Source: Gemmatimonadales bacterium
Lineage (GTDB): Bacteria > Gemmatimonadota > Gemmatimonadetes > Gemmatimonadales > GWC2-71-9
NCBI GenBank assembly: GCA_035708725.1
Contig: DASTFH010000151.1
Location: forward strand, 3,783-67,782
DNA: 64,000 nt
Reading direction: 5' to 3'
Made by a program: the position numbers and the translations under genes. Each line of letters starts with the position of its first letter. Positions within the stretch are counted from its first letter, which is position 1. Below are positions 2,230-61,674 of the stretch, in pieces. The notes beneath the pieces were generated by a model that searched no databases, was not told where the DNA came from, and saw only the letters and a program-made list of their open reading frames with translations.

Positions 2230-3258
2230 CTACATCTCCTCCAACTCCCGCCCCAGCACCGCCGGGTCGAACGGTACCGGCACCACCAGGTCAGCTCCGG
2301 TCGCGACCCCGGATACTCCGTCACCCGTCAGCGCCACGACACGATAGCTGCGCTCGTTCGCCGGAGGGAGACCGCCGTCGGGCACGTCGAGCGTCGACGC
2401 AAAGATGACGAGCGCGTTATCGCCGGTGGAGGCCATCCCGGACAGTTCTGACGCCGCATGACAGCGCCGCACACTCCATCCAGCTTGGCGCAAGAGCAGT
2501 GAGACGATCCGCGCCAGCGCTTCATCCGGCAGATAAAGCAGCGCGGCGCCCCGGGCGACGGCGGGCACCGCTGGCGGCCGCACGGCACCGTCGCTCAGGT
2601 CGATCATGCGCGTTGTGCCAACGTAGGTGGCGCTGCGCGCATCGCTCAGCGAGCCGATTTGCCGGACGATGTCGCGGATCCGTCCCAGTGCCACGCGCAC
2701 CTCGGTGAGCCCTTCACGCTGCGCCGGTGACAGCGCTTCGGGTGCCGCGAGCAGGAGGTCCACCTCGGCCGAGGCCGCCATGAGCGGATTGTTGATCTCG
2801 TGGTGGAGCGTGACCGTCATCTCACCCATCGCCGCTCGCCGCTCCGCCTGCACCAGCTCGGCCTCCGCCACTTCGAGCGCCCGCTTGAGCGCACGCTCCC
2901 GCCGCACCCGCTCCAGCACCTTGGGCAGCAGGTTGGGCAGGGTGCCGTCCTTCACCAGGTAATCGTCGGCCCCCCGCCGCAGCGATTCGGCCGCGAGCGC
3001 TTCATTGCCATGCGCCGTGATCATCACCACGCTGGGCGGCTCGCGCCGGTCGCGCAGGGAGCGGAGCAGGTCGACGCCCTCGTGATCCGGCAGCTGATGG
3101 TCGAGCAGCACCACGTCCGCCGCCTCGGCCTGCGCCAGGGCTCGCTCGGCGCTGGTCACATGGGCGACGCTGGAGACGCCGGCATTCTGCAGGACGGCAT
3201 CGAGCAGCCGGATGATGGCGGGGTCGTCGTCCACGATCAGCACGCGAAGCTCATCCAT
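2230..3258 (-). CDS. Receiver - HisKA - degenerate receiver protein with no ATPase domain (phosphotransfer-type)
   Basis: MDELRVLIVDDDP receiver, H-box LHHEINNPL, and no N/G1/G2 ATP-binding boxes afterwards. The C-terminal ~130 aa look like a degenerate receiver fold (LLYLPDE...VIFAS...VVALTGD). I chose the ATG at 3258, which leaves 2 nt after the GT2 stop; the ORF track starts at 3288. Confidence 0.7.
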   Translation of the reverse strand: MDELRVLIVDDDPAIIRLLDAVLQNAGVSSVAHVTSAERALAQAEAADVVLLDHQLPDHEGVDLLRSLRDRREPPSVVMITAHGNEALAAESLRRGADDYLVKDGTLPNLLPKVLERVRRERALKRALEVAEAELVQAERRAAMGEMTVTLHHEINNPLMAASAEVDLLLAAPEALSPAQREGLTEVRVALGRIRDIVRQIGSLSDARSATYVGTTRMIDLSDGAVRPPAVPAVARGAALLYLPDEALARIVSLLLRQAGWSVRRCHAASELSGMASTGDNALVIFASTLDVPDGGLPPANERSYRVVALTGDGVSGVATGADLVVPVPFDPAVLGRELEEM

Positions 3259-10666: not shown

Positions 10667-10761
10667 GAGTTGAGAGTTAAGAGTTGAGATTTGAGGGAGA
10701 AGAGCGGGCCAGCCGAGAGTCGATCGCTCGACTCTCAACTCTTAACTCTTAACTCCCTCCC
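10667..10761. repeat. Hairpin array with inner palindrome
   Basis: Left arm GAGTTGA GAGTTAA GAGTTGA GATTTGA at 10667-10694. Inner palindrome GAGAGTCGA-tcgc-TCGACTCTC at 10715-10736. Right arm (AACTCTT)2AACTCCC. The stop codon of the zinc-ribbon gene (10749-10751) lies inside the right arm. Confidence 0.8.
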
Positions 10762-13225: not shown

Positions 13226-13447
13226 ATGGGCGGGACGGGCAGGATGGGCGGGACCTGAGTCGAGCGTCATTGCGAGGAGGCGAAGCCGACGAAGCAATCG
13301 GGTGGCCTGCGAATTGATGCTTAAGCGACCCGATTGCTTCGCACCCTTCGGGTGCTCGCAATGACGCGCGTGGCGAGCTTCGGCCTGCCCATCCTGCCCA
13401 TCCTGCCCATCCTGCCCATCCTGCCCATCTAGCCCGTCCTGCCATCC
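13225..13447. repeat. Composite hairpin element, type C core (13266-13365)
   Basis: Left arm GATGGGCGG GACGGGCAG GATGGGCGG GAC. Core GTCATTGCGAGG...CTCGCAATGAC. Right arm (CTGCCCATC)5 TAGCCCGTC CTGCCATCC. Sits between the convergent glnA and DUF3108 stop codons. Confidence 0.85.
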
Positions 13448-18708: not shown

Positions 18709-19359
18709 ATGTCGCTCGCCGAGCTGCGTCAGGAACTTGCCCAGGTCACGCCCCCATCGGCCCAGCCGGAGGGGGTGGCCACCGGCTGGGCACCGCTGGA
18801 CCACGCCCTGGGCGGCACCCTGCCCAGGGGACTCATCACCGAGATCACGGGGCCGGCCGGCTCCGGCCGCACCACGCTACTCCGCCGCCTGGTGGAAGGC
18901 GCCATCCGGCAGGAGCTGCTGGTGGCGTACATCGACGCCGAGTGCACGCTCAATCCCCGGGACTGGGCGCACCTGGCGCGCCGGGCGGATGATGACGGCC
19001 TCTGGGTCATCCGCCCGCCCGATCCCGCCCGCGCCGCCTGGTGCAGTGAGCTCCTGCTCCGGAGTGGCGCCTTTCCCATCGTGATCCTGGACGGCGGCCC
19101 CGTCCTGCCGCACGCCATCACTGTCCGGCTCGCCAGCATCGCGCGCGAGCATGACGCGTCGCTTGTCCTGAGCCGCACCAGCGACAGCGGCTCGCTTCGG
19201 GGCGTGACGGTGGCCGTGCGCGGCCGCGCTTCCCGCACCGTGGAGGTGAAACGTGAGATCGTCGTGGCGCGTCGCCTGTGTGCGCATCCCGAGATTCCCG
19301 ATCGGCGCGGTGTGGAGCGCCGACGTCACGCACCTTCCCGGTACGGACGCGTGGGATGA
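18709..19359 (+). CDS. imuA: ImuA-like RecA-fold protein
   Basis: GWAPLDHALGGTLPRGLITEITGPAGSGRTTLLRRL (Walker-A-like) and its position 5' of imuB-dnaE2. The start is uncertain: ATG 18709 chosen, alternative ATG 18670. Confidence 0.65.
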   Translation: MSLAELRQELAQVTPPSAQPEGVATGWAPLDHALGGTLPRGLITEITGPAGSGRTTLLRRLVEGAIRQELLVAYIDAECTLNPRDWAHLARRADDDGLWVIRPPDPARAAWCSELLLRSGAFPIVILDGGPVLPHAITVRLASIAREHDASLVLSRTSDSGSLRGVTVAVRGRASRTVEVKREIVVARRLCAHPEIPDRRGVERRRHAPSRYGRVG

Positions 19360-20755
19360 CGCCCACCGCGCCCTGAGCGACGGCGCCCGTGTGCGCATGG
19401 TGTCCTCTGCCGCGCGCCTCGCCGGCGTCACGCCCGGCATGACGCTGAACGCGGCGCGCGCCGCGGTGGAGGCACTCGATGTCCGCCCCTGGGATGATCG
19501 CATCATTGCGCGCGCGGTCACCATGGTCACTGGCCAGCTGGTGGAGCTGAGTCCGCAGGTGACGGCCGCCACCGGCGCGCCCGGGGTCTGGTGGATCGGC
19601 GCCAGCGGGTTCGAGAAGCTGGGCGGCGAGCGCGCCCTGCTCAGGCGGCTCCTCACGCTCGCACAGAAATATCATCCGCGCGCCCGCGTGGCCTCGGCTG
19701 ACACCTGCATCGCCGCGCACGTGGCCACGATGCTTCGCTGGCCCAACAACCGTTCGGCGCACCTGGTGCCGCCGGGCGGATCCATGCGGCTGCTGCGCCG
19801 GGCCCCGCTCACGCTCATCCCCATGGACAACGAACTCCGCGCGGCATTCTCGGCGCTGGGCATCGTCACAGCCGGTGCGCTGGCGGCACTGCCCGCCGGC
19901 GAAGTCGAACGCCGCTGGGGCGATGACGGCCTTCGTGCCTGGCATCTCGCGCGTGGCGACGATGATCGCCGCCCCGTGCTCGCCACCATCTCGGCGGCGG
20001 CCGCGGTCACGGTGGAGCTGCCCGATCCGGTGACGACGCTCGAGCCGGTGCTCTTCCTTCTCACCCCCGCACTGGAGCGGCTGGTGCGTGACTCCGCCGT
20101 GAAGGGCGAGGCGATCGCCGCCGTGGTGCTGACGCTGGTGCTCGATCGCGCGGCACCGCATGAGCTGCTGGTGGCGCTCGCGCGCCCGGTGGCACGTGCG
20201 GCGCCGCTGTTTGACCAATGCCGAGCCGCGCTGGAAGCGTGCGCGCTCGACGCACCGATCCGCGCACTCGCCATCACGGTGCGCGAGGCCGTCCCGCTGC
20301 CTGATGAACAGGGCGACCTGCTCCGTCCCACATGGAAGGATCCCACTGCCATGGAAGGCGTCTTTGCCCGGCTCCGCGCGGGGCTCGGCGTGAATGCGGT
20401 GGTGCGGCCGCTGCTGGTGGACCGGGGGCACCGCATCGAGGATCGCGCCATCTGGGCAGACCGTCCCGCCAGCATGGAGGGTGCGGCGCCGAGCGCCACT
20501 GAGGCCTCCACCCGCCTGCTCACGCCGCCGGCACCGGTGGCAGTGCGGCGGCGGCATGGGAAACCCGCGGCCATTCGCTGGGAGGGACGTCGCTGGGTGG
20601 TGACCCGCGCCGTGGGCCCCGAGCACCTGGCCGGCGCGTGGTGGGACCAGCCCTATGATCGCGAATACTGGTACTGCGACACTCCCCGCGGCTCGCTGCT
20701 CATCTACCACGCCCGCGGCACCGGGCGGTGGTGGGTGGAAGGGTGGGGGGATTGA
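19253..20755 (+). CDS. imuB: ImuB, Y-family-polymerase-like protein
   Basis: GTG start. The N-terminus ACVRIPRFPIGAV is typical of ImuB, and the gene sits between imuA and dnaE2. Overlaps imuA by 107 nt as drawn. Confidence 0.75.
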   Translation: MRSSWRVACVRIPRFPIGAVWSADVTHLPGTDAWDDAHRALSDGARVRMVSSAARLAGVTPGMTLNAARAAVEALDVRPWDDRIIARAVTMVTGQLVELSPQVTAATGAPGVWWIGASGFEKLGGERALLRRLLTLAQKYHPRARVASADTCIAAHVATMLRWPNNRSAHLVPPGGSMRLLRRAPLTLIPMDNELRAAFSALGIVTAGALAALPAGEVERRWGDDGLRAWHLARGDDDRRPVLATISAAAAVTVELPDPVTTLEPVLFLLTPALERLVRDSAVKGEAIAAVVLTLVLDRAAPHELLVALARPVARAAPLFDQCRAALEACALDAPIRALAITVREAVPLPDEQGDLLRPTWKDPTAMEGVFARLRAGLGVNAVVRPLLVDRGHRIEDRAIWADRPASMEGAAPSATEASTRLLTPPAPVAVRRRHGKPAAIRWEGRRWVVTRAVGPEHLAGAWWDQPYDREYWYCDTPRGSLLIYHARGTGRWWVEGWGD

Positions 20756-20759
20756 AGGG

Positions 20760-20910
20760 GGTCGTCGGTCGTCGGTCATCAACTGCACTGTCACTCTGAG
20801 GCTGCGAAGCAGCCGAAGAGGCCGGAGCTTGGTTGAGCTTCGGTCCCTTCGCTTTGCTCAGGGTGACAGACGCAAACCTCCGACGACCGATGACTGACGA
20901 CCGATGACCG
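20760..20910. repeat. Composite hairpin element, type A core (20790-20867), between imuB and dnaE2
   Basis: Left arm (GGTCGTC)2GGTCATC. Core GTCACTCTGAGGCTGCGAAGCAGCCGAAGAGGC...CTCAGGGTGAC. Right arm CCGACGA CCGATGA CTGACGA CCGATGA, an exact-type reverse complement of the left arm that contains the dnaE2 ATG (20904). Confidence 0.9.
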
Positions 20911-23900
20911 CGTACACAGAACTCCACACCCACTCCTGCTTCTCGCTCCTCGACGGTGCGTCCACGCCCGAACGGCTGGTGGAGAGCGCCAGCGCACTGG
21001 GCTACCGCGCGCTCGCGCTCACCGACCACAACGAGATGGGCGGGGCGGTGCAGTTCGCCGAAACGGCGCGCGAGAATGGACTCGCGGCCATTCTTGGCAC
21101 CGAGCTCACGGTGCTGTGGGATGATGAACTCACCCATCTCACCCTGCTGGCCGAGTCGCGCGAGGGGTACGGCAACCTCTGCCAATTGATCACGCAGAGC
21201 CGCATGGAGATGCCGCGCGGTGAGCCGGCGGTGCCGCTGGCGCTACTCGCGCAGCATGCGGCGGGAATCTTTGCGCTCACCGGCTGCCTCCGGGGTCGGG
21301 TGCCGGTGCTGGTGGCACGCGGCGATGAAGCGGCTGCCCGAGCGGCTGCCGCACAGCTGCATGACATGCTCGACGGCCGGCTCGCCATCGAGTGCTGGGA
21401 TCACAGCCTGGAGGAGGAACGCGTCGTCGTCCCGGCACTCCAACGCATCGCGCACTTCCTCGGCGTGCCGTGGGTGGTGACCAACGACGTGCACTACGCC
21501 CATCCCGACGAGTGGCGCACGCATGATGTGCTCACCGCGCTGCGTCACCGGCGGACGCTGGAGGAAATGGGGAGCCGGCTCCGCCCCAGCGGCGAGTGGT
21601 ACCTCAAGCATCCGGCCCAGCATGCCCGGCGCTGGCAGCATGCGCCCGAGGGATTGCTCGCGAGCGTCGAGATCGGCGAACGCTGTGTCTTTCGCCTCGA
21701 GCATCTCAAGCCGGCCATGCCGGATTTTCCCCTGCCGCCCGGCGTCACCGCCGACGAATATCTCGCGCGCCTCGTGGCGCAGGGGGCGCGCGAACGCTGG
21801 GGCCGGGACATCACCCTTGCCCAGCGCCGCCAGCTCATGCATGAGCTGGACCTGATCAGGCGGCTCGACTTTGCCGGCTATTTCCTGATTGTCTGGGACA
21901 TCGTGCGCTTTGCCCGTCGCGAGGGGATCCTCTGCCAGGGCCGGGGCTCCGCCGCCAATTCCGCCGTCTGCTACTGCCTCGGCATCACCGCCATCGATCC
22001 CGTCGCCATGGAGCTCCTGTTCGAGCGCTTCCTGAGTGAGGACCGGCGTGAGGCCCCCGACATCGACCTCGACTTCGCGCACCAGGAACGCGAGCGCGTC
22101 ATCCAGTATGTCTACCAGCGCTACGGCCGCGCGCACGCGGCGATGGTGTGCGAGCAGATCACCTGGCGCGAGCGCAGCGCCATCCGTGACGCGGCGCGGG
22201 TGCTCGGGTACTCGGCGGAGGAGGGGGACGTACTTGCAGAGATGGCGGAGCAGGGAGGAAGGGTCAACGGTCAACAGTCAACGGTCGACCGTCGACCGTC
22301 GACCGTCGACCGCGTAGCCGCCTCCCTCCACGGCCTCCCCCGTCATCGCTCCATCCACGTGGGCGGGTTTGTGCTGACGCGCGAGCCGCTGGCGACGGTT
22401 GTCCCGATCGAGCCCGCATCCATGCCGGACCGCACCGTGATCCAGTGGGAGAAGGACGACCTCGATCCGGTCGGTCTGGTAAAGATCGACCTGCTGGGCC
22501 TCGGCATGCTCACCGCGCTGCAGGAGTGCCTGCACACCATCCGTCGCACCCGGGGCGTGTCGCTCGACCTCGCCACCATCCCGCACGGCGACATGGCGGT
22601 GTACGACGACCTGTGCCGAGCCGATACCGTGGGCGTCTTCCAGGTGGAGAGTCGGGCGCAGATGAACACGCTGCCCAGGCTCAAGCCGCGCTGCTTCTAC
22701 GATCTCGTGGTAGAGGTGGCGCTGATCCGTCCCGGCCCCATCCAGGGCGACATGGTGCATCCCTACCTGCGGCGGCGGGCGGGCACCGAGGCGGTGACCT
22801 ATCCGCATCCCGCGCTCGAGCCGATCCTCAAGCGCACGCTCGGTGTGCCGCTCTTCCAGGAGCAGGGAATGCAGGTGGCCATCACGGCGGCCGGCTTCAC
22901 CCCCGGCGAGGCCGACACGCTGCGGCGCGCCATGGGGCACAAGCGCTCGCGCGAGCGGATGGCGGCGATCTGCGCCAAGCTGATTGCGGGGATGCGGCAG
23001 AACGGGATTCCGGAGGAGACGGCGCAGAAGATCTTCAACCAGATCAACGCCTTTGCGGATTACGGCTTTCCCGAGAGTCACGCCGCCAGCTTTGCGATCC
23101 TGGTCTATGCCTCGGCCTATCTCCGCCACTACTACGCGCCAGAATATCTCGCGGCGATGCTCAACGCCCAGCCGATGGGGTTCTACTCGACGGGCACGCT
23201 GGTGGAAGATGCCAGGCGGCATGGCGTGGAGGTGCGCGGCGTGGACCTCACACGGTCGTCGTGGGATTGCACCATGGAAGCAGGCCGCAATGGACCGGTG
23301 GTGCGGCTGGGACTCCGTACCGTGCGCGGGCTGGGTGCGCGAGCGCGGGAGATTCTCGGAGCCGGGGCGGCCACCCGCGCCTACCGGAGCGTGAGTGATG
23401 TCGTCCATGCGGGACTCGACCGCCGCACGTTGCGCGCGCTGGCGGAAGCGGGTGCGTTCGACGGCATGTTTCCCGATGCGCCGGCCAGGAGGCGGAGGCG
23501 CACCGCGCTCTGGGCCGTGCTCGCCGCCGAGCGGGGCGATGCGGGCCCGCTGGCGCCGCCGGTGGCGCTGGTCGAGCCACCGGCATTGCCGGCGATGACG
23601 CCGGTGGAGCTCACGGAAGCCGATTACCGGATGACCGGGCTTTCGCTCGCCGGGCACCCCATGAGCCACCTGCGCGAGTGGCTCAGGCGGAATGGGGTGC
23701 CGACGGCGGCGGAAGTGCTGGAAGATGCGACCTGCGACCTGCGACCTGTGACTTGCGACCTGCGACCCGCGACCCGCGACCTGCGACCTGTGACCGTCGT
23801 AGTCGCCGGCCTGGTCATCTGCCGCCAGCGGCCGCACACGGCCCATGGGTTCGTGTTCGTCACGCTGGAGGACGAAACCGGGATGCTCAATGTGGTGATC

Positions 23901-24068
23901 CCGCCCACGGTCTTCGAGAAGCAGCGGTTGTTGATTGCCAGGACGCCGTTGCTGCTGGTGCGGGGGGAGCTGCAGGTGGAGGGGCTGGTGGTCAATATCA
24001 AGGCGGCGGAATGCGAGGCGATTCATGCTGCCGTGGGCAGGCATGCGAGGAGCCATGATTTCCATTGA
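20904..24068 (+). CDS. dnaE2: Error-prone DNA polymerase III alpha-like subunit DnaE2
   Basis: The PHP N-terminus YTELHTHSCFSLLDGAS, pol III alpha core blocks (GRGSAANSAVCYCLGIT, DIDLDF, FQVESRAQM) and the OB fold region VAGLVICRQRPHTAHGFVFVTLEDETG are all present. Synteny with imuA and imuB supports the call. Confidence 0.9.
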   Translation: MTAYTELHTHSCFSLLDGASTPERLVESASALGYRALALTDHNEMGGAVQFAETARENGLAAILGTELTVLWDDELTHLTLLAESREGYGNLCQLITQSRMEMPRGEPAVPLALLAQHAAGIFALTGCLRGRVPVLVARGDEAAARAAAAQLHDMLDGRLAIECWDHSLEEERVVVPALQRIAHFLGVPWVVTNDVHYAHPDEWRTHDVLTALRHRRTLEEMGSRLRPSGEWYLKHPAQHARRWQHAPEGLLASVEIGERCVFRLEHLKPAMPDFPLPPGVTADEYLARLVAQGARERWGRDITLAQRRQLMHELDLIRRLDFAGYFLIVWDIVRFARREGILCQGRGSAANSAVCYCLGITAIDPVAMELLFERFLSEDRREAPDIDLDFAHQERERVIQYVYQRYGRAHAAMVCEQITWRERSAIRDAARVLGYSAEEGDVLAEMAEQGGRVNGQQSTVDRRPSTVDRVAASLHGLPRHRSIHVGGFVLTREPLATVVPIEPASMPDRTVIQWEKDDLDPVGLVKIDLLGLGMLTALQECLHTIRRTRGVSLDLATIPHGDMAVYDDLCRADTVGVFQVESRAQMNTLPRLKPRCFYDLVVEVALIRPGPIQGDMVHPYLRRRAGTEAVTYPHPALEPILKRTLGVPLFQEQGMQVAITAAGFTPGEADTLRRAMGHKRSRERMAAICAKLIAGMRQNGIPEETAQKIFNQINAFADYGFPESHAASFAILVYASAYLRHYYAPEYLAAMLNAQPMGFYSTGTLVEDARRHGVEVRGVDLTRSSWDCTMEAGRNGPVVRLGLRTVRGLGARAREILGAGAATRAYRSVSDVVHAGLDRRTLRALAEAGAFDGMFPDAPARRRRRTALWAVLAAERGDAGPLAPPVALVEPPALPAMTPVELTEADYRMTGLSLAGHPMSHLREWLRRNGVPTAAEVLEDATCDLRPVTCDLRPATRDLRPVTVVVAGLVICRQRPHTAHGFVFVTLEDETGMLNVVIPPTVFEKQRLLIARTPLLLVRGELQVEGLVVNIKAAECEAIHAAVGRHARSHDFH
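22262..22310 (+). repeat. Heptamer array inside the dnaE2 CDS
   Basis: (GGTCAAC)2 AGTCAAC GGTCGAC (CGTCGAC)3, translated as VNGQQSTVDRRPSTVDR in a linker before LHGLPRH. Confidence 0.85.
23727..23796 (+). repeat. Heptamer array inside the dnaE2 CDS
   Basis: Ten units of GCGACCT/GTGACTT/GCGACCC, translated as CDLRPVT CDLRPAT RDLRPVT directly before the OB-fold segment VVVAGLV. Confidence 0.85.
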
Positions 24069-24072
24069 GGCA

Positions 24073-24135
24073 GTCGGGCGTCGGGCGTCGAGCGTCGAGC
24101 GTCAAGCGCTCGACGCCAGACGCTTGACGCGCGAC
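24073..24135. repeat. Coreless hairpin array
   Basis: (GTCGGGC)2(GTCGAGC)2GTCAAGC | GCTCGAC GCCAGAC GCTTGAC GCGCGAC. It starts 5 nt after the dnaE2 stop and ends 2 nt before the DUF72 ATG. Confidence 0.85.
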
Positions 24136-24137
24136 GC

Positions 24138-25124
24138 ATGACCCACGACCCCGGCATCGACGCCGCCACGCGCCGCGCCGACGCGCTGGCCGACGTGGAC
24201 GCGGTGCCCATCATGGTGGGCAAGGCCGAGGTGCGGATCGGGACGGCGGGGTGGACCGACCCCACGCTTACGAAGCGCGGCGTGTTCTATCCTGCCGGTG
24301 CGGACAGCGCGGAGGACCGGCTCCGCTACTACGCCAGCCGCTTCTCGATGGTGGAGGTGGATTCCACCTATTACGCGCTGCCGGTGTCGCAGATGGCCGA
24401 GCGCTGGGTGGAGCGCACGCCGGAGGGCTTTGTCTTTGACGTGAAGGCGCATGCCCTGATGACGGGGCATCCCACCGATCCGCATCGCCTCCCTCCTGCG
24501 TTAAGAGAAGAGCTGGGCGGCAGTGCCGATGCGCATCGCGTGTATCCCAGGGACATGTCGGATGCGCTGCTGGATCATGTCTGGGAATTTTTTCGCGACG
24601 CGCTCCGGCCGTTGTACGACGCGGGGAAGATGGGCTCGGTGCTCATGCAGTATCCGCCCTGGTTCATGCCGTCCAAGGGCAACGTGGCCAGGATTCTCGA
24701 AGCTCGGCAGCGCCTGGCGCCGCTGGAGATCGCGGTGGAGCTGCGTAACGCGCGCTGGTTCAGCGAGAAGGTCGGCCCGCGCACCGTCGACTGGTGCACC
24801 GAGCATGCAGTGCCGCTCGTCATGGTAGACGAGCCGCAGGGGACGCCGCACAGCGTGCCGAGGCTGGTCACGGTCACGTCCCCTTCGCTGGCGATCCTCC
24901 GCCTGCATGGCCGGAAGGCGGCGACCTGGGCGCGGCGCGGCGCGAGCGTGGGCGAGAAGTACCGCTATCTGTACGACCGGGAGGAGCTGCAGTCGCTGGT
25001 GCCGGACGTCGAGGACGCCGGCCGCGAGGCTCGGCGCATGCACATCATCTTCAATAATTGCTATGGGAACTACGGGACGACGAATGCGCTGGAGATGTGG
25101 GAGGAGCTAAGCGCTCAGCGCTGA
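24138..25124 (+). CDS. DUF72 family protein
   Basis: IGTAGWTDP, FYP..., RLRYYASRFSMVEVDSTYYALP and the IFNNCYGNY C-terminal block. Confidence 0.8.
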   Translation: MTHDPGIDAATRRADALADVDAVPIMVGKAEVRIGTAGWTDPTLTKRGVFYPAGADSAEDRLRYYASRFSMVEVDSTYYALPVSQMAERWVERTPEGFVFDVKAHALMTGHPTDPHRLPPALREELGGSADAHRVYPRDMSDALLDHVWEFFRDALRPLYDAGKMGSVLMQYPPWFMPSKGNVARILEARQRLAPLEIAVELRNARWFSEKVGPRTVDWCTEHAVPLVMVDEPQGTPHSVPRLVTVTSPSLAILRLHGRKAATWARRGASVGEKYRYLYDREELQSLVPDVEDAGREARRMHIIFNNCYGNYGTTNALEMWEELSAQR

Positions 25125-28025: not shown

Positions 28026-28144
28026 CAGCGTTCAGCGTTCAGCGTTCAGCGCACAGCGCACAGCGCACAGCGCACAGCGCTCAGCGCTCAGCGCTCAGCC
28101 CTCAGCCCTCAGCCCTCAGCCTTCAGCCCCCAACCCTCACCTCC
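28026..28144. repeat. Graded heptamer array
   Basis: (CAGCGTT)3(CAGCGCA)4(CAGCGCT)3(CAGCCCT)3 CAGCCTT CAGCCCC CAACCCT CACCTCC. The OsmC stop (28123-28125) and its last codons lie in the degenerate end. Confidence 0.9.
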
Positions 28145-28646: not shown

Positions 28647-28716
28647 GAGCTGTGAACTGCGAGCTGTGAGCTGTGAGCTGCGAGCTGTGAGCTGTGAGCT
28701 GAAGACCGAAAGCTAA
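28647..28716. repeat. Heptamer array (GAGCTGT family)
   Basis: GAGCTGT GAACTGC (GAGCTGT)2 GAGCTGC (GAGCTGT)2 GAGCTGA AGACCGA AAGCTAA. Its reverse complement ACAGCTC is 6/7 identical to the ACAGCGC register of the 28026 array. Confidence 0.85.
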
Positions 28717-28821: not shown

Positions 28822-28840
28822 AGCTTGGAGCTAGCTTCGC

Positions 28841-28920
28841 CTAACCGCCTAACCGCCTAACCGCCTAACCGCCTAACCGCCTAACCGCCTAACCGCCTAA
28901 CCGCCTAACCGCCTAACCGC
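28841..28920. repeat. Perfect octamer array (CTAACCGC)10
   Basis: Ten identical units counted; it ends 20 nt before the ClC start codon. Confidence 0.95.
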
Positions 28921-28940
28921 CCAGCCGACTATCTTCCCCC

Positions 28941-30734: not shown

Positions 30735-31010
30735 CAGGGCGAGCAGGGCGAGCAGGGCGAGTCGGTTGGTTGTACGCCGCACGTCGTACGTCGTCATGTC
30801 ACTCTGAGGTCGCGAAGCGACCGAAGAGGCCGAAGCTCAACTGACGCTCCGGCCCCTTCGCTCCGCTCAGGGTGACAACTTCGCTCACAGCTCACAGCGC
30901 ACAGCGCACAGCGCACAGCACACAGCGCACAGCACACAGCACACAGCGCACAGCACACAGCGCACAGCTCACAGCTCACTGTCCATCGGTCCAACTGTCC
31001 ATCTGTCCAC
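30735..31010. repeat. Composite element, type A core (30798-30876), with non-complementary arms
   Basis: Left arm (CAGGGCGAG)3 plus GTACGTCGT-type units. Core GTCACTCTGAGGTCGCGAAGCGACCGAAGAGGC...CTCAGGGTGAC. Right arm has 13 CACAGCN heptamers (30886-30976), then CTGTCCAT-type octamers (30979-31010). Confidence 0.9.
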
Positions 31011-37704: not shown

Positions 37705-37815
37705 GGTCGAGGAGTCGAGGGGTCGAGCAGTCAAGGAACCTACCTCGACCTCTCGACTCCTCGACCTCTCGACGGCTCAACCTCTCGACCCCTCGACGTC
37801 TCGACCTCTCGACCG
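37705..37815. repeat. Hairpin array of GTCGAGG-type octamers
   Basis: Left arm GGTCGAGG AGTCGAGG GGTCGAGC AGTCAAGG. Right arm has nine CTCGACNN units ending at the DUF1634 stop codon. Confidence 0.85.
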
Positions 37816-43259: not shown

Positions 43260-44078
43260 ATGATCATGATACCGGTTGATGCCCGGTTTGGCTCGCCGTG
43301 CGAGATTCGCCGCCCTTCACTTTCTTCCGAGGCCGGCTTGTCTCGTCGATTCGAGCCTCTGGCAGATGACCGACAGTCCATCCGGCTCGATGGATATGAC
43401 TACGCGCGGGACGGCGCGTATTTCATCACGATGTGTGTCGCCGGGCGCAGGCGCATCCTTGGCCAGATTCGCAACGGGGTCGTGGTGCTGAGCGAAGCGG
43501 GGCGCATCGTGCGGGACGCGTGGGAACAGTTGCCTGCCCATTATCCCCATGTGCGGCTGGATGAATTCGTGATCATGCCCAACCACGTGCACGGCATCAT
43601 CATGTTAACGGGCGACGGCCAGGACGTGGGAACGGGTCCGGACGTGGGAATGGATCGGAACGTGGGAATGGATCGGGACGTGGGAACGGACCGGGACGTG
43701 GGAACGGATTGGGACGTGGGAATGGATCGGGAGGTGGGAACGGATCGGGAGGTGGGAACGGATCGGGACGTGGGAACGGATCGGGACGTGGGAAAGGTAG
43801 GGGCGGGTCTAAGACCCGCCCCTACGGCCGCCCGGGGTACCATCCCAACGTCACGCGGCGTCCCGATCTCGACCCGCGTCCACGCATTACCGGAAATCGT
43901 CCGCGCGTTCAAATCCTTCTCCGCGCGCGCCATAAACATTCACCGCGGTACACCGGGCGCCCGTGTCTGGCAACGGAACTACTACGAACGGATTATCCGT
44001 AACCAGCACCATCTTGAGCAGACCCGCCGCTACATTCGGGAGAACCCGACCAAATGGGGTGACGACCGGTTCCACTAG
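43260..44078 (+). CDS. HUH-Y1 transposase homologue (IS200/IS605 TnpA / REP-associated tyrosine transposase-like)
   Basis: The family N-terminal block SIRLDGYDYARDGAYFITMCV, the HUH motif MPNHVHGII and the catalytic Tyr helix HHLEQTRRYIRENP are all present. The start is uncertain (an in-frame TTG at 43338 is possible). The linker carries an expanded repeat. Confidence 0.75.
   Translation: MIMIPVDARFGSPCEIRRPSLSSEAGLSRRFEPLADDRQSIRLDGYDYARDGAYFITMCVAGRRRILGQIRNGVVVLSEAGRIVRDAWEQLPAHYPHVRLDEFVIMPNHVHGIIMLTGDGQDVGTGPDVGMDRNVGMDRDVGTDRDVGTDWDVGMDREVGTDREVGTDRDVGTDRDVGKVGAGLRPAPTAARGTIPTSRGVPISTRVHALPEIVRAFKSFSARAINIHRGTPGARVWQRNYYERIIRNQHHLEQTRRYIRENPTKWGDDRFH
43623..43802 (+). repeat. Ten tandem 18-nt units inside the transposase CDS
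   Basis: GACGTGGGAACGGATCGG-type units, translated as (DVGTDR)n, between the HUH and Tyr motifs. Confidence 0.9.
43799..43823. repeat. Perfect 12-bp palindrome inside the transposase CDS
   Basis: AGGGGCGGGTCT-a-AGACCCGCCCCT, translated as GAGLRPAP. Confidence 0.9.
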
Positions 44079-61608: not shown

Positions 61609-61674
61609 GTCGAGGGTCGAGAGTCGAGGGTCGAGGGTTCGTTACCCTGTTGCTCGACTCTCGACCCTCGACTC
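61609..61674. repeat. Hairpin array GTCGAGG family
   Basis: GTCGAGG GTCGAGA (GTCGAGG)2, 15-nt loop, CTCGACT CTCGACC CTCGACT. The cupin stop (61673) lies in the right arm. Confidence 0.85.

Follow-up and report, generated by a model that had tools for sequence, protein, structure and literature searches.

Heptamer arrays in the dnaE2 gene of a Gemmatimonadales bacterium as a candidate contingency-like switch on inducible mutagenesis

The contingency loci of host-adapted bacteria depend on simple sequence repeats (SSRs), such as the tetranucleotide tracts of lic and mod in Haemophilus, the CTCTT tract of opa in Neisseria, and the poly-G tracts of Campylobacter. Here, we describe two heptamer arrays inside dnaE2, which encodes an error-prone paralog of the DNA polymerase III (Pol III) alpha subunit, in a 64,000-nucleotide (nt) stretch of DNA (hereafter, the window) from a Gemmatimonadales bacterium with a G+C content of ~67% (assembly GCA_035708725.1, contig DASTFH010000151.1, positions 3,783 to 67,782 of the forward strand). 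That these arrays are slippage-prone on/off tracts is well supported; that they constitute an evolved contingency switch on mutagenesis is a plausible hypothesis. Altogether, we put the probability that they act as a contingency-like, biologically meaningful mutational on/off switch on damage-inducible mutagenesis slightly above one half (~0.55).

The pressures acting on SSRs in coding regions have been described (PMC3315296), and the dnaE2 tracts share several properties with SSR contingency loci. They are nontriplet repeats within an open reading frame (ORF), adding or removing units changes the reading frame, whole units distinguish the natural alleles, which include ON alleles as well as OFF alleles shifted at the tract, and the repeats are nonrandomly concentrated in one functional gene class. 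Such an operon-specific enrichment is the type of evidence by which contingency loci were first defined. By contrast, the dnaE2 units are 7 to 8 nt long rather than 1 to 5 nt, the tracts are short and imperfect, OFF alleles are rare, and the host is a free-living soil bacterium. The target also differs, being a DNA damage mutagenesis operon instead of surface or restriction-modification genes, and many of the tracts in Gemmatimonadota are inverted pairs that can form hairpins.

Slippage-prone repeats within mutation-rate genes include the 6-bp repeats in mutL of Salmonella and Escherichia coli (PMC2955026) and coding homopolymers in MSH3 and MSH6 of mismatch repair-deficient tumors (PMC11250277). 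As in those genes, mutability under the control of the dnaE2 tracts would be heritable and potentially reversible. However, the repeats in mutL, MSH3, and MSH6 inactivate an antimutator, so that OFF means hypermutation, whereas an OFF allele of dnaE2 would remove inducible mutagenesis; moreover, the length of the mutL unit is divisible by three, and its effect involves no frameshift. In-ORF tandem repeats of Borgs create intrinsically disordered regions and have units divisible by three (PMC9879509). The arrays described here resemble them in evolving fast, in being born locally, and in pervading intergenic DNA while also occurring in ORFs as disordered loops, but they lack the unit length of the Borg amino acid tandem repeats (aaTR): their 7- to 8-nt units are read in all three frames in turn, and a single-unit change is a frameshift.

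Among repeats of noncoding DNA, the short tandemly repeated repetitive (STRR) sequences of cyanobacteria are an intergenic family of heptamer repeats. G-rich heptamers occur in Xanthomonas and Nostoc (PMC4692102) and TAACTGA repeats in Beggiatoaceae (PMC4679880), and all of these are, like the arrays studied here, abundant 7-nt tandem arrays in the noncoding DNA of particular lineages. They share one or a few units genome-wide, whereas the units here are nearly unique and fall at most into loose families such as GTCGAxC; in addition, ~40% of the arrays here are in inverted pairs, and a subset lies in frame in mutasome genes. The arrays also differ from REP and REPIN elements, which form one conserved family with many dispersed copies, in that their units differ by locus. 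Full-text literature searches turned up neither repeat tracts in dnaE2 or imuB nor arrays of this kind in Gemmatimonadota.

The two heptamer arrays of dnaE2

dnaE2 (positions 20904 to 24068 of the window, + strand) encodes a protein of 1,054 amino acids (aa) and bears both tracts. The site-1 array (22262 to 22312, + strand) consists of approximately three GGTCAAC-type units followed by four perfect GTCGACC units, which together form an imperfect hairpin, and it encodes residues ~453 to 470 (RVNGQQSTVDRRPSTVDR) in the thumb region. The site-2 array (23726 to 23795, + strand) consists of 10 TGCGACC units in direct orientation only and encodes residues ~941 to 964 (ATCDLRPVTCDLRPATRDLRPVT), immediately before the first strand of the OB fold. 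Tandem Repeats Finder (TRF) resolves site 1 into two arrays of period 7, at 22262 to 22286 (GGTCAAC, 3.6 copies) and at 22284 to 22312 (GTCGACC, 4.1 copies, 100% match), and reports site 2 as a single array of period 7 (23726 to 23795; TGCGACC, 10.0 copies, 88% match, score 105). These positions lie within 1 to 2 nt of those in a preliminary description of this DNA, made from the sequence alone, which had recognized seven and 10 heptamers inside the gene. Both nontriplet arrays fall within the single ORF of 1,054 codons, and its translation holds the peptide repeats that had been read from them, QQSTVDRRPSTVDRVAASLHGLPRH and TCDLRPVTCDLRPATRDLRPVTVVVAGLVICRQRP (also written QQSTVDRRPSTVDR and TCDLRPVTCDLRPATRDLRPVT); the period of the peptides is 7 aa, i.e., three units. 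The longest run of identical units is three at site 2 (among 10 units at 88% match), as originally described, and four at site 1, where only three had been noted. The arrays are real and nonrandom: a period-7 array with a TRF score of at least 43 was found in none of 500 codon-shuffled versions of dnaE2, and the real scores are 43, 58, and 105.

dnaE2 is under strong purifying selection, and the tracts are extreme local indel hotspots within it. The three segments outside the tracts, the two largest of which comprise 1,296 and 1,329 nt, have the same length with zero indels in every member of the clade, and their ratio of nonsynonymous to synonymous substitution rates (dN/dS) against clade relatives is 0.04 to 0.15 at dS up to 0.8. 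Together, the low dN/dS and the lack of indels outside the tracts show dnaE2 to be functional and under selection. Judged by its sequence, the product belongs to the error-prone Pol III alpha family with its PHP, palm-thumb, fingers, helix-hairpin-helix, and OB architecture. The ORF matches the NCBIfam model NF004225 “error-prone DNA polymerase” with 1,258 bits (cut-off 939) and scores under the model's own cut-off with the DnaE1 model. Pfam domains occur in the order PHP, DNA_pol3_alpha, finger, HHH_6, and OB, the OB fold being sub-threshold, and the closest matches in the PDB are the Pol III alpha subunits of Taq and E. coli.

To place the tracts in the protein, we used an alignment of DnaE2 from 80 genomic and 80 metagenomic loci. 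The spacing between GHPMSH and RQRP, which enclose site 2, is 33 to 34 aa in nearly all other DnaE2 proteins (Gemmatimonadota, Actinomycetota, and Ignavibacteria) and 46 to 95 aa in the clade of the window. Because of this difference in spacing, site 2 is a genuine lineage-specific insertion, located in the turn ahead of the first OB-fold strand. One clade member, the protein P0003 (loci L166 to L169), has a canonical site 2 of 96 nt and no array. Site 1 lies between RVLGYS and RHRSIH, in the thumb region according to the alignment to Taq Pol III alpha. The length of this segment is 35 to 267 aa across DnaE2, and with 41 aa the segment of the window is within this range; therefore, the array takes the place of a stretch of the variable linker, whose length it does not increase. 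Thus, the earlier proposal that both segments are lineage-specific insertions holds for site 2 and fails for site 1.

In an AlphaFold2 model of the dnaE2 product (31-sequence alignment; mean predicted local distance difference test score, pLDDT, 76; predicted template modeling score, pTM, 0.71) with secondary structure assigned by DSSP, residues 450 to 464 at site 1 are coil, with pLDDT <50 at 452 to 460, and are flanked by helices at 438 to 449 and 465 to 475. At site 2, residues 945 to 962 are coil, with pLDDT <50 at 947 to 959, between a helix (935 to 944) and a strand (963 to 974). Because both tracts are modeled as coil with pLDDT <50, they are predicted to encode disordered loops, in agreement with their initial assignment to surface linkers.

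RecA-fold ImuA-like and ImuB-like genes directly upstream of dnaE2 make up the usual mutasome cassette. In the window, the first gene of the cassette is an ImuA/ImuA'-like RecA-fold gene (18709 to 19359, + strand; 216 aa; Pfam RecA, 50.9 bits; NCBIfam ImuA, 51 bits, below cut-off), and an ImuB-like gene (19280 to 20755, + strand; 491 aa; weak similarity to Y-family polymerases; Pol IV models, E = 1.5e-10, below cut-off) lies directly upstream of dnaE2. Both assignments are based on gene order and weak homology, since both proteins miss the curated cut-offs. The ImuB-like gene of the window is without a 7/8-nt array, whereas imuB homologs of other Gemmatimonadota do bear such arrays.

Unit-number alleles among relatives

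Arrays are present at the same two sites in five lineages (the window and loci L001, L020, L081, and L082; 82 to 91% protein identity), and their units and lengths differ. A scan of Joint Genome Institute (JGI) metagenome contigs for strain-level variants yielded only L081 and L082, which are more distant relatives; informative variants were instead provided by the 90%-identity protein cluster to which the protein of the window belongs. This cluster comprises 19 members, which are ~95 to 99% identical outside the two tracts. The GGTCAAC/CGTCGAC array at site 1 has seven units in the window, L164, and L170. In L165 it has 10 units, which adds 21 nt and leaves the gene in frame, and in L161 it has five units (112 nt versus 126 nt; remainder modulo 3, 1) and is out of frame, with dnaE2 split into gene calls of 513 and 444 aa. 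The junction in L161, at which CGTGGAC meets CGCGTAG, includes a unique variant unit; because of this unit, the junction cannot come from a collapse of identical k-mers but needs real reads. In L020, a long-read metagenome-assembled genome (MAG), there is a +1 frameshift within the region of the site-1 array, and one heptamer fewer would restore the frame. A neighboring 9-mer array in the P0004 cluster has two or three units among near-identical strains.

Because 7 leaves a remainder of 1 on division by 3, the reading frame is kept when an array changes by three units and lost when it changes by one or two. In simulations, gain or loss of one or two units shortened the product to 468 to 833 aa when made at site 1 and removed the OB fold when made at site 2, while gain or loss of three units gave a product of 1,047 or 1,061 aa. 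The natural alleles with five, seven, and 10 units agree with these simulations and bear out two expectations of the preliminary description, i.e., that the tracts vary in length among relatives and that only multiples of three units are neutral.

Frame breaks are present in four of 121 Gemmatimonadota dnaE2 loci, and two of the four are at site-1 arrays; those in L031 and L109 were rejected as array slippage, being ordinary 1-nt indels away from any array. The two out-of-frame alleles at arrays are recent and may be polymorphic or erroneous; that they are old pseudogenes is excluded by the dN/dS downstream of the shift (0.062 in L161 and 0.09 in L020). Both sites bear tracts in independent assemblies, built from short reads or from long reads in several projects, which excludes an assembly artifact as the origin of the tracts. 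Nevertheless, the arrays break short-read assemblies and yield truncated gene calls, and several candidate OFF alleles were discarded as such breaks: the gene calls for P0127 and P0128 start at contig ends beside site 1, those for P0123 and P0135 stop where their contigs terminate within site 2, and the cluster-5 fragments P0148 and P0150 start ~50 to 100 nt inside the contig end. The contigs of P0150 (L252 and L253) end within an 8-mer array at approximately residue 820, and the contigs L162 and L163 start at site 1. In the case of P0122, 213 nt lie upstream of the GTG start, and a broken frame is suggested.

Three further observations concern the history of the locus. L164, which is the strain of the window from another sample, has a dnaE2 identical to that of the window except for a dense patch of substitutions at 22580 to 22712, and a second patch lies at 20185 to 20707 in the 3' part of the ImuB-like gene; these patches suggest a mosaic generated by recombination between strains. 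The combinations of tracts are also mosaic, with P0136 having a P0001-type site 1 and a P0002-type site 2. Finally, site 2 of L081 (~nt 2775 to 3060 of its dnaE2) has a unique core of ~150 nt between two heptamer arms. This core contains two small hairpins, ATTCCGCC-GAAA-GGCGGAAT and CCCCGAC-TTTC-GTCGGGG, is in frame and free of stop codons, adds ~50 aa before the OB fold, and may be a small inserted element.

Arrays in mutasome genes and in noncoding DNA

In Gemmatimonadota, hardly any coding DNA other than dnaE2 and the imuB homolog upstream of it contains nontriplet arrays. We counted an array as internal to a coding sequence (CDS) if a coding signal in the G+C content of third codon positions (GC3) was present in one frame on both flanks, and used loci centered on dnaE2 (L001 to L160) or glnA (L171 to L250). 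In 108 nonredundant dnaE2 loci, dnaE2 holds 60 CDS-internal 7/8-mer arrays in 281 kb of eligible CDS (0.21 per kb) and the upstream imuB/imuA-like genes hold 23 in 73 kb (0.32 per kb), compared with one array in 83 kb for the downstream genes (0.012 per kb). The upstream arrays were inside imuB homologs in 15 of 15 loci checked by tblastn. At least one CDS-internal array on the mutasome side is borne by 37 of the 108 loci, and a further 69 non-CDS arrays lie upstream of dnaE2. As a baseline, 80 glnA-centered Gemmatimonadales loci plus the window (1.31 Mb) contain 180 noncoding arrays and just two in 786 kb of ordinary coding DNA; in the baseline loci that contain the operon (the window and L231), there are seven arrays in 8 kb. 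Among loci with at least one noncoding array, mutasome CDS has 53 arrays in 163 kb versus two in 584 kb of other CDS, a ~95-fold excess (binomial p = 7e-33, a statistic that ignores the shared ancestry of the loci).

The period spectrum follows the same division: period 7 is more frequent than 8 and both are far more frequent than 9 in noncoding DNA, ordinary CDS has periods of 6, 9, or 12, and mutasome CDS has periods of 7 and 8. Across clades, dnaE2 has at least six array sites (~nt 205 to 290, 505 to 530, 1340 to 1450, 1585 to 1780, 2404 to 2590, and 2830 to 2950 from the start), and imuB homologs have several; the number of independent sites and clades is far above the ~0.6 events expected from the baseline. 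Because dnaE2 is strongly constrained and arrays are nearly absent from almost 800 kb of other CDS, this operon-specific enrichment is hard to explain by tolerance alone. Similarly, relaxed selection on dnaE2 as its source is unsupported given the dN/dS of 0.04 to 0.15.

The window contains ~27 arrays of period 7 to 8 with at least three copies, and all except those in dnaE2 lie between genes or at gene ends. Thus, dnaE2 is the sole gene in the window that is interrupted internally by such arrays; the window's other proteins of 1,050 to 1,190 aa hold none. The arrays inside dnaE2 had been described as being of the same kind as the intergenic ones, and the two sets are indeed alike in period, copy number (median 4.1 versus 4.3), percent match, longest perfect run (2.5 versus 2.1 units), and partner fraction, an array with a complementary partner accounting for ~35% of dnaE2-internal arrays and 40% of arrays in general. 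Nearly every array has its own unit. Still, 23 distant pairs in the window are within one mismatch of each other versus 9.6 expected, and two loose families of units, GTCGAxC-like and GAGCTGT/CAGCGCT-like, link distant loci; examples of loci with linked units are 1040 to 1088 and 28647 to 28701, 10667 to 10755, 24073 to 24137, and 61609 to 61674. The identical unit GAGCTGT is present at loci 27 kb apart, and many units contain palindromes of 4 to 6 nt, e.g., GTCGAC and AGCGCT.

Strong hairpins bracket dnaE2. In the spacer between the ImuB-like gene and dnaE2 (20756 to 20910, + strand), an inverted heptamer pair, GGTCGTC at 20760 to 20777 and CCGACGA at 20880 to 20910, makes up the base of a compound hairpin (fold of 20756 to 20905, −90 kcal/mol, z −9.3). 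The ATG of dnaE2 (20904) and an out-of-frame ATG 14 nt upstream are both inside the right-arm repeat of this hairpin, which may affect translation initiation. Just after the dnaE2 stop codon, the inverted pair GTCGAGC/CGCTCGA detected by TRF (24073 to 24137, + strand) forms a second hairpin (fold of 24066 to 24145, −56.9 kcal/mol, z −6.8). Within the gene, the RNA fold of site 1 is modest (−37 kcal/mol, z −3.2). Site 2 of the window has a direct arm only and no RNA structure (z −1.2), and a functional hairpin at site 2 was therefore excluded for this allele. By contrast, L001, L020, L082, L170, and L162 have an inverted pair at site 2, with arms that are complementary despite differing units, and the strongest of these hairpins are those of L001 (−53.5 kcal/mol, z −7.0) and L020 (−63 kcal/mol, z −6.4).

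The window has a second dense cluster of arrays that is unrelated to the mutasome (28026 to 28139, 28838 to 28921, and 30886 to 30979). These arrays are very long and nearly perfect and include two overlapping heptamer arrays of ~13.5 copies each, CACAGCG with 13.4 copies, and the perfect 8-mer CGCCTAAC with 10.5 copies, which ends at the start of an ORF at 28917. Other repeats, at 43622 to 43794, 13384 to 13447, and 37744 to 37814, are an 18-mer with 9.6 copies (score 276), a 9-mer with 7.2 copies, and an 8-mer inverted pair (37706 to 37737 and 37744 to 37814).

A proposed switch on mutagenesis and its alternatives

We suggest that the arrays belong to the hypermutable, hairpin-forming short tandem repeats of 7 to 9 nt that fill the intergenic DNA of the lineage and that they occupy two disordered, permissive loops of DnaE2. 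Whole 7-nt units would be gained or lost by slipped-strand mispairing in replication or repair, and the self-complementarity of the arrays may stabilize the slipped intermediates. A net change of three units would add or remove 7 loop residues without damage to the enzyme. A frameshift from one or two units would leave a product with only the PHP domain and half the palm if it occurred at site 1 and one that lacks the OB fold if it occurred at site 2. In nature, the gene would then exist as ON alleles and occasional OFF alleles, and a further slip could restore ON. Nontriplet arrays would otherwise be purged from the coding DNA of Gemmatimonadota and be retained in dnaE2 and the ImuB-like gene. 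The data show the arrays and their location in loops, the variation by whole units, the out-of-frame alleles, the strong constraint elsewhere in the gene, and the enrichment in the operon; the slippage mechanism, its reversibility, the rate of switching, and the maintenance of the tracts by selection rather than by tolerance are what we infer. Mycobacterial DnaE2 mediates −1 frameshift mutagenesis induced by damage (PMC9346131); because of this activity, one may speculate that an active mutasome could raise the switching rate of its own gene.

The preliminary description had already proposed a contingency switch within a mutator polymerase gene. The slippage-type tracts, the changes in unit number with the predicted frame outcome, and the ~95-fold enrichment argue for this proposal, but several observations weigh against it. 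Out-of-frame alleles are rare (two of ~24 clade sequences and two of 43 in-gene array blocks), whereas ON and OFF states are much more evenly represented in classical phase-variable genes. The contig of L161 has low coverage (2.8), and a 1-nt consensus error is possible in the long-read MAG of L020. The tracts in L164, the second sample of the strain of the window, are identical to those of the window. The perfect runs are short, with only three to four units, and the shared ancestry of the loci tempers the enrichment statistic. Greater purity or length of the in-gene arrays was considered as a mark of selection for mutability, and no such excess was seen; the dnaE2 arrays, being no longer or purer than intergenic arrays, do not look selected for added mutability.

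The same likeness between in-gene and intergenic arrays in period, copy number, purity, and partner frequency is what would be expected if array formation were genome-wide and nonadaptive and the arrays in dnaE2 and imuB were tolerated passengers, kept because loops are permissive and occasional loss of an SOS-only, nonessential function is cheap. The frameshifted alleles would then be ordinary deleterious or neutral mutants or sequencing errors without a switching function. In line with this account, OFF alleles are rare, both tracts lie in predicted disordered loops, site 1 is in a linker of 35 to 267 aa across DnaE2, and one clade member lost or never had the site-2 insert with nothing else changed. 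However, purifying selection on dnaE2 is strong (dN/dS of 0.04 to 0.15 and no indels outside the tracts), so that its loss is not free. Moreover, the 786 kb of other CDS, which surely encode many dispensable and loop-rich proteins, have only two arrays, and the proteins of 1,050 to 1,190 aa in the window have none; a ~95-fold operon-specific excess is hard to reconcile with tolerance alone. We therefore regard passengers as a serious but rather unlikely explanation.

Two other explanations would make the frameshift liability or the enrichment a by-product. If the stem-loops of inverted array pairs, as RNA or DNA, kept mutasome expression low by attenuation, as targets of an RNase, or by braking translation, neither the periodicity nor the frameshifts would have a function of their own. 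The strong hairpins on either side of dnaE2 (20756 to 20905 and 24066 to 24145), the fold of site 1 (z −3.2), the very stable inverted pairs at site 2 of L001 and L020, whose arms are complementary though the units differ between lineages, and the occurrence of the same hairpins beside genes elsewhere fit such a role. Yet site 2 of the window is purely direct and unstructured (z −1.2) while the gene is still conserved, partners are no more frequent for dnaE2-internal arrays (~35%) than for arrays in general (40%), and no terminator-like U tract was seen, all of which makes cis-acting hairpins improbable as the explanation. It is also conceivable that the mutasome, or repair synthesis at the time of SOS induction, makes or expands arrays in and around its own operon and that the enrichment reflects local mutation input and not selection. 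The frameshift activity of mycobacterial DnaE2 (PMC9346131) lends itself to this idea. Noncoding DNA around the operon is array-dense too, with seven arrays in ~5 kb of the window and 69 non-CDS arrays upstream of dnaE2 in the 108 loci, but other clusters in the window, e.g., at 28 to 32 kb, are unrelated to the operon. Because the CDS of downstream neighbors, only 0.1 to 1 kb away, is nearly array-free (one in 83 kb), the data point to gene-specific retention rather than a regional gradient of mutation. We also know of no mechanism for cis-preferential action of a polymerase, and consider a self-inflicted hotspot very improbable.

The ~95-fold confinement of nontriplet arrays to mutasome genes is an unexplained regularity that stands on its own, and, on the practical side, the arrays break contigs and split gene calls when metagenomes are assembled. 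It has long been asked how bacteria control the supply of their own mutations. The known heritable switches of this supply act on mismatch repair and, when switched off, give a mutator. If a contingency-like switch in dnaE2 is true, it would be the mirror image of these, with tracts that turn off, and perhaps back on, a dedicated machine for damage-induced mutagenesis. Throughout this phylum, whose members are abundant in soil, such tracts are found repeatedly, at several positions and in two of the operon's genes, and the logic of contingency loci would thereby extend beyond pathogens and surface genes. More tentatively, and with some doubt on our part, the imuA'-imuB-dnaE2 operon may be the one place in Gemmatimonadota where selection retains, or the mutasome creates, frameshift-prone hairpin arrays in CDS. 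A heritable, reversible, and stochastic switch, perhaps self-limiting as DnaE2 promotes frameshifts, would then govern inducible mutagenesis, and free-living soil bacteria would have a bet-hedging control of their evolvability.

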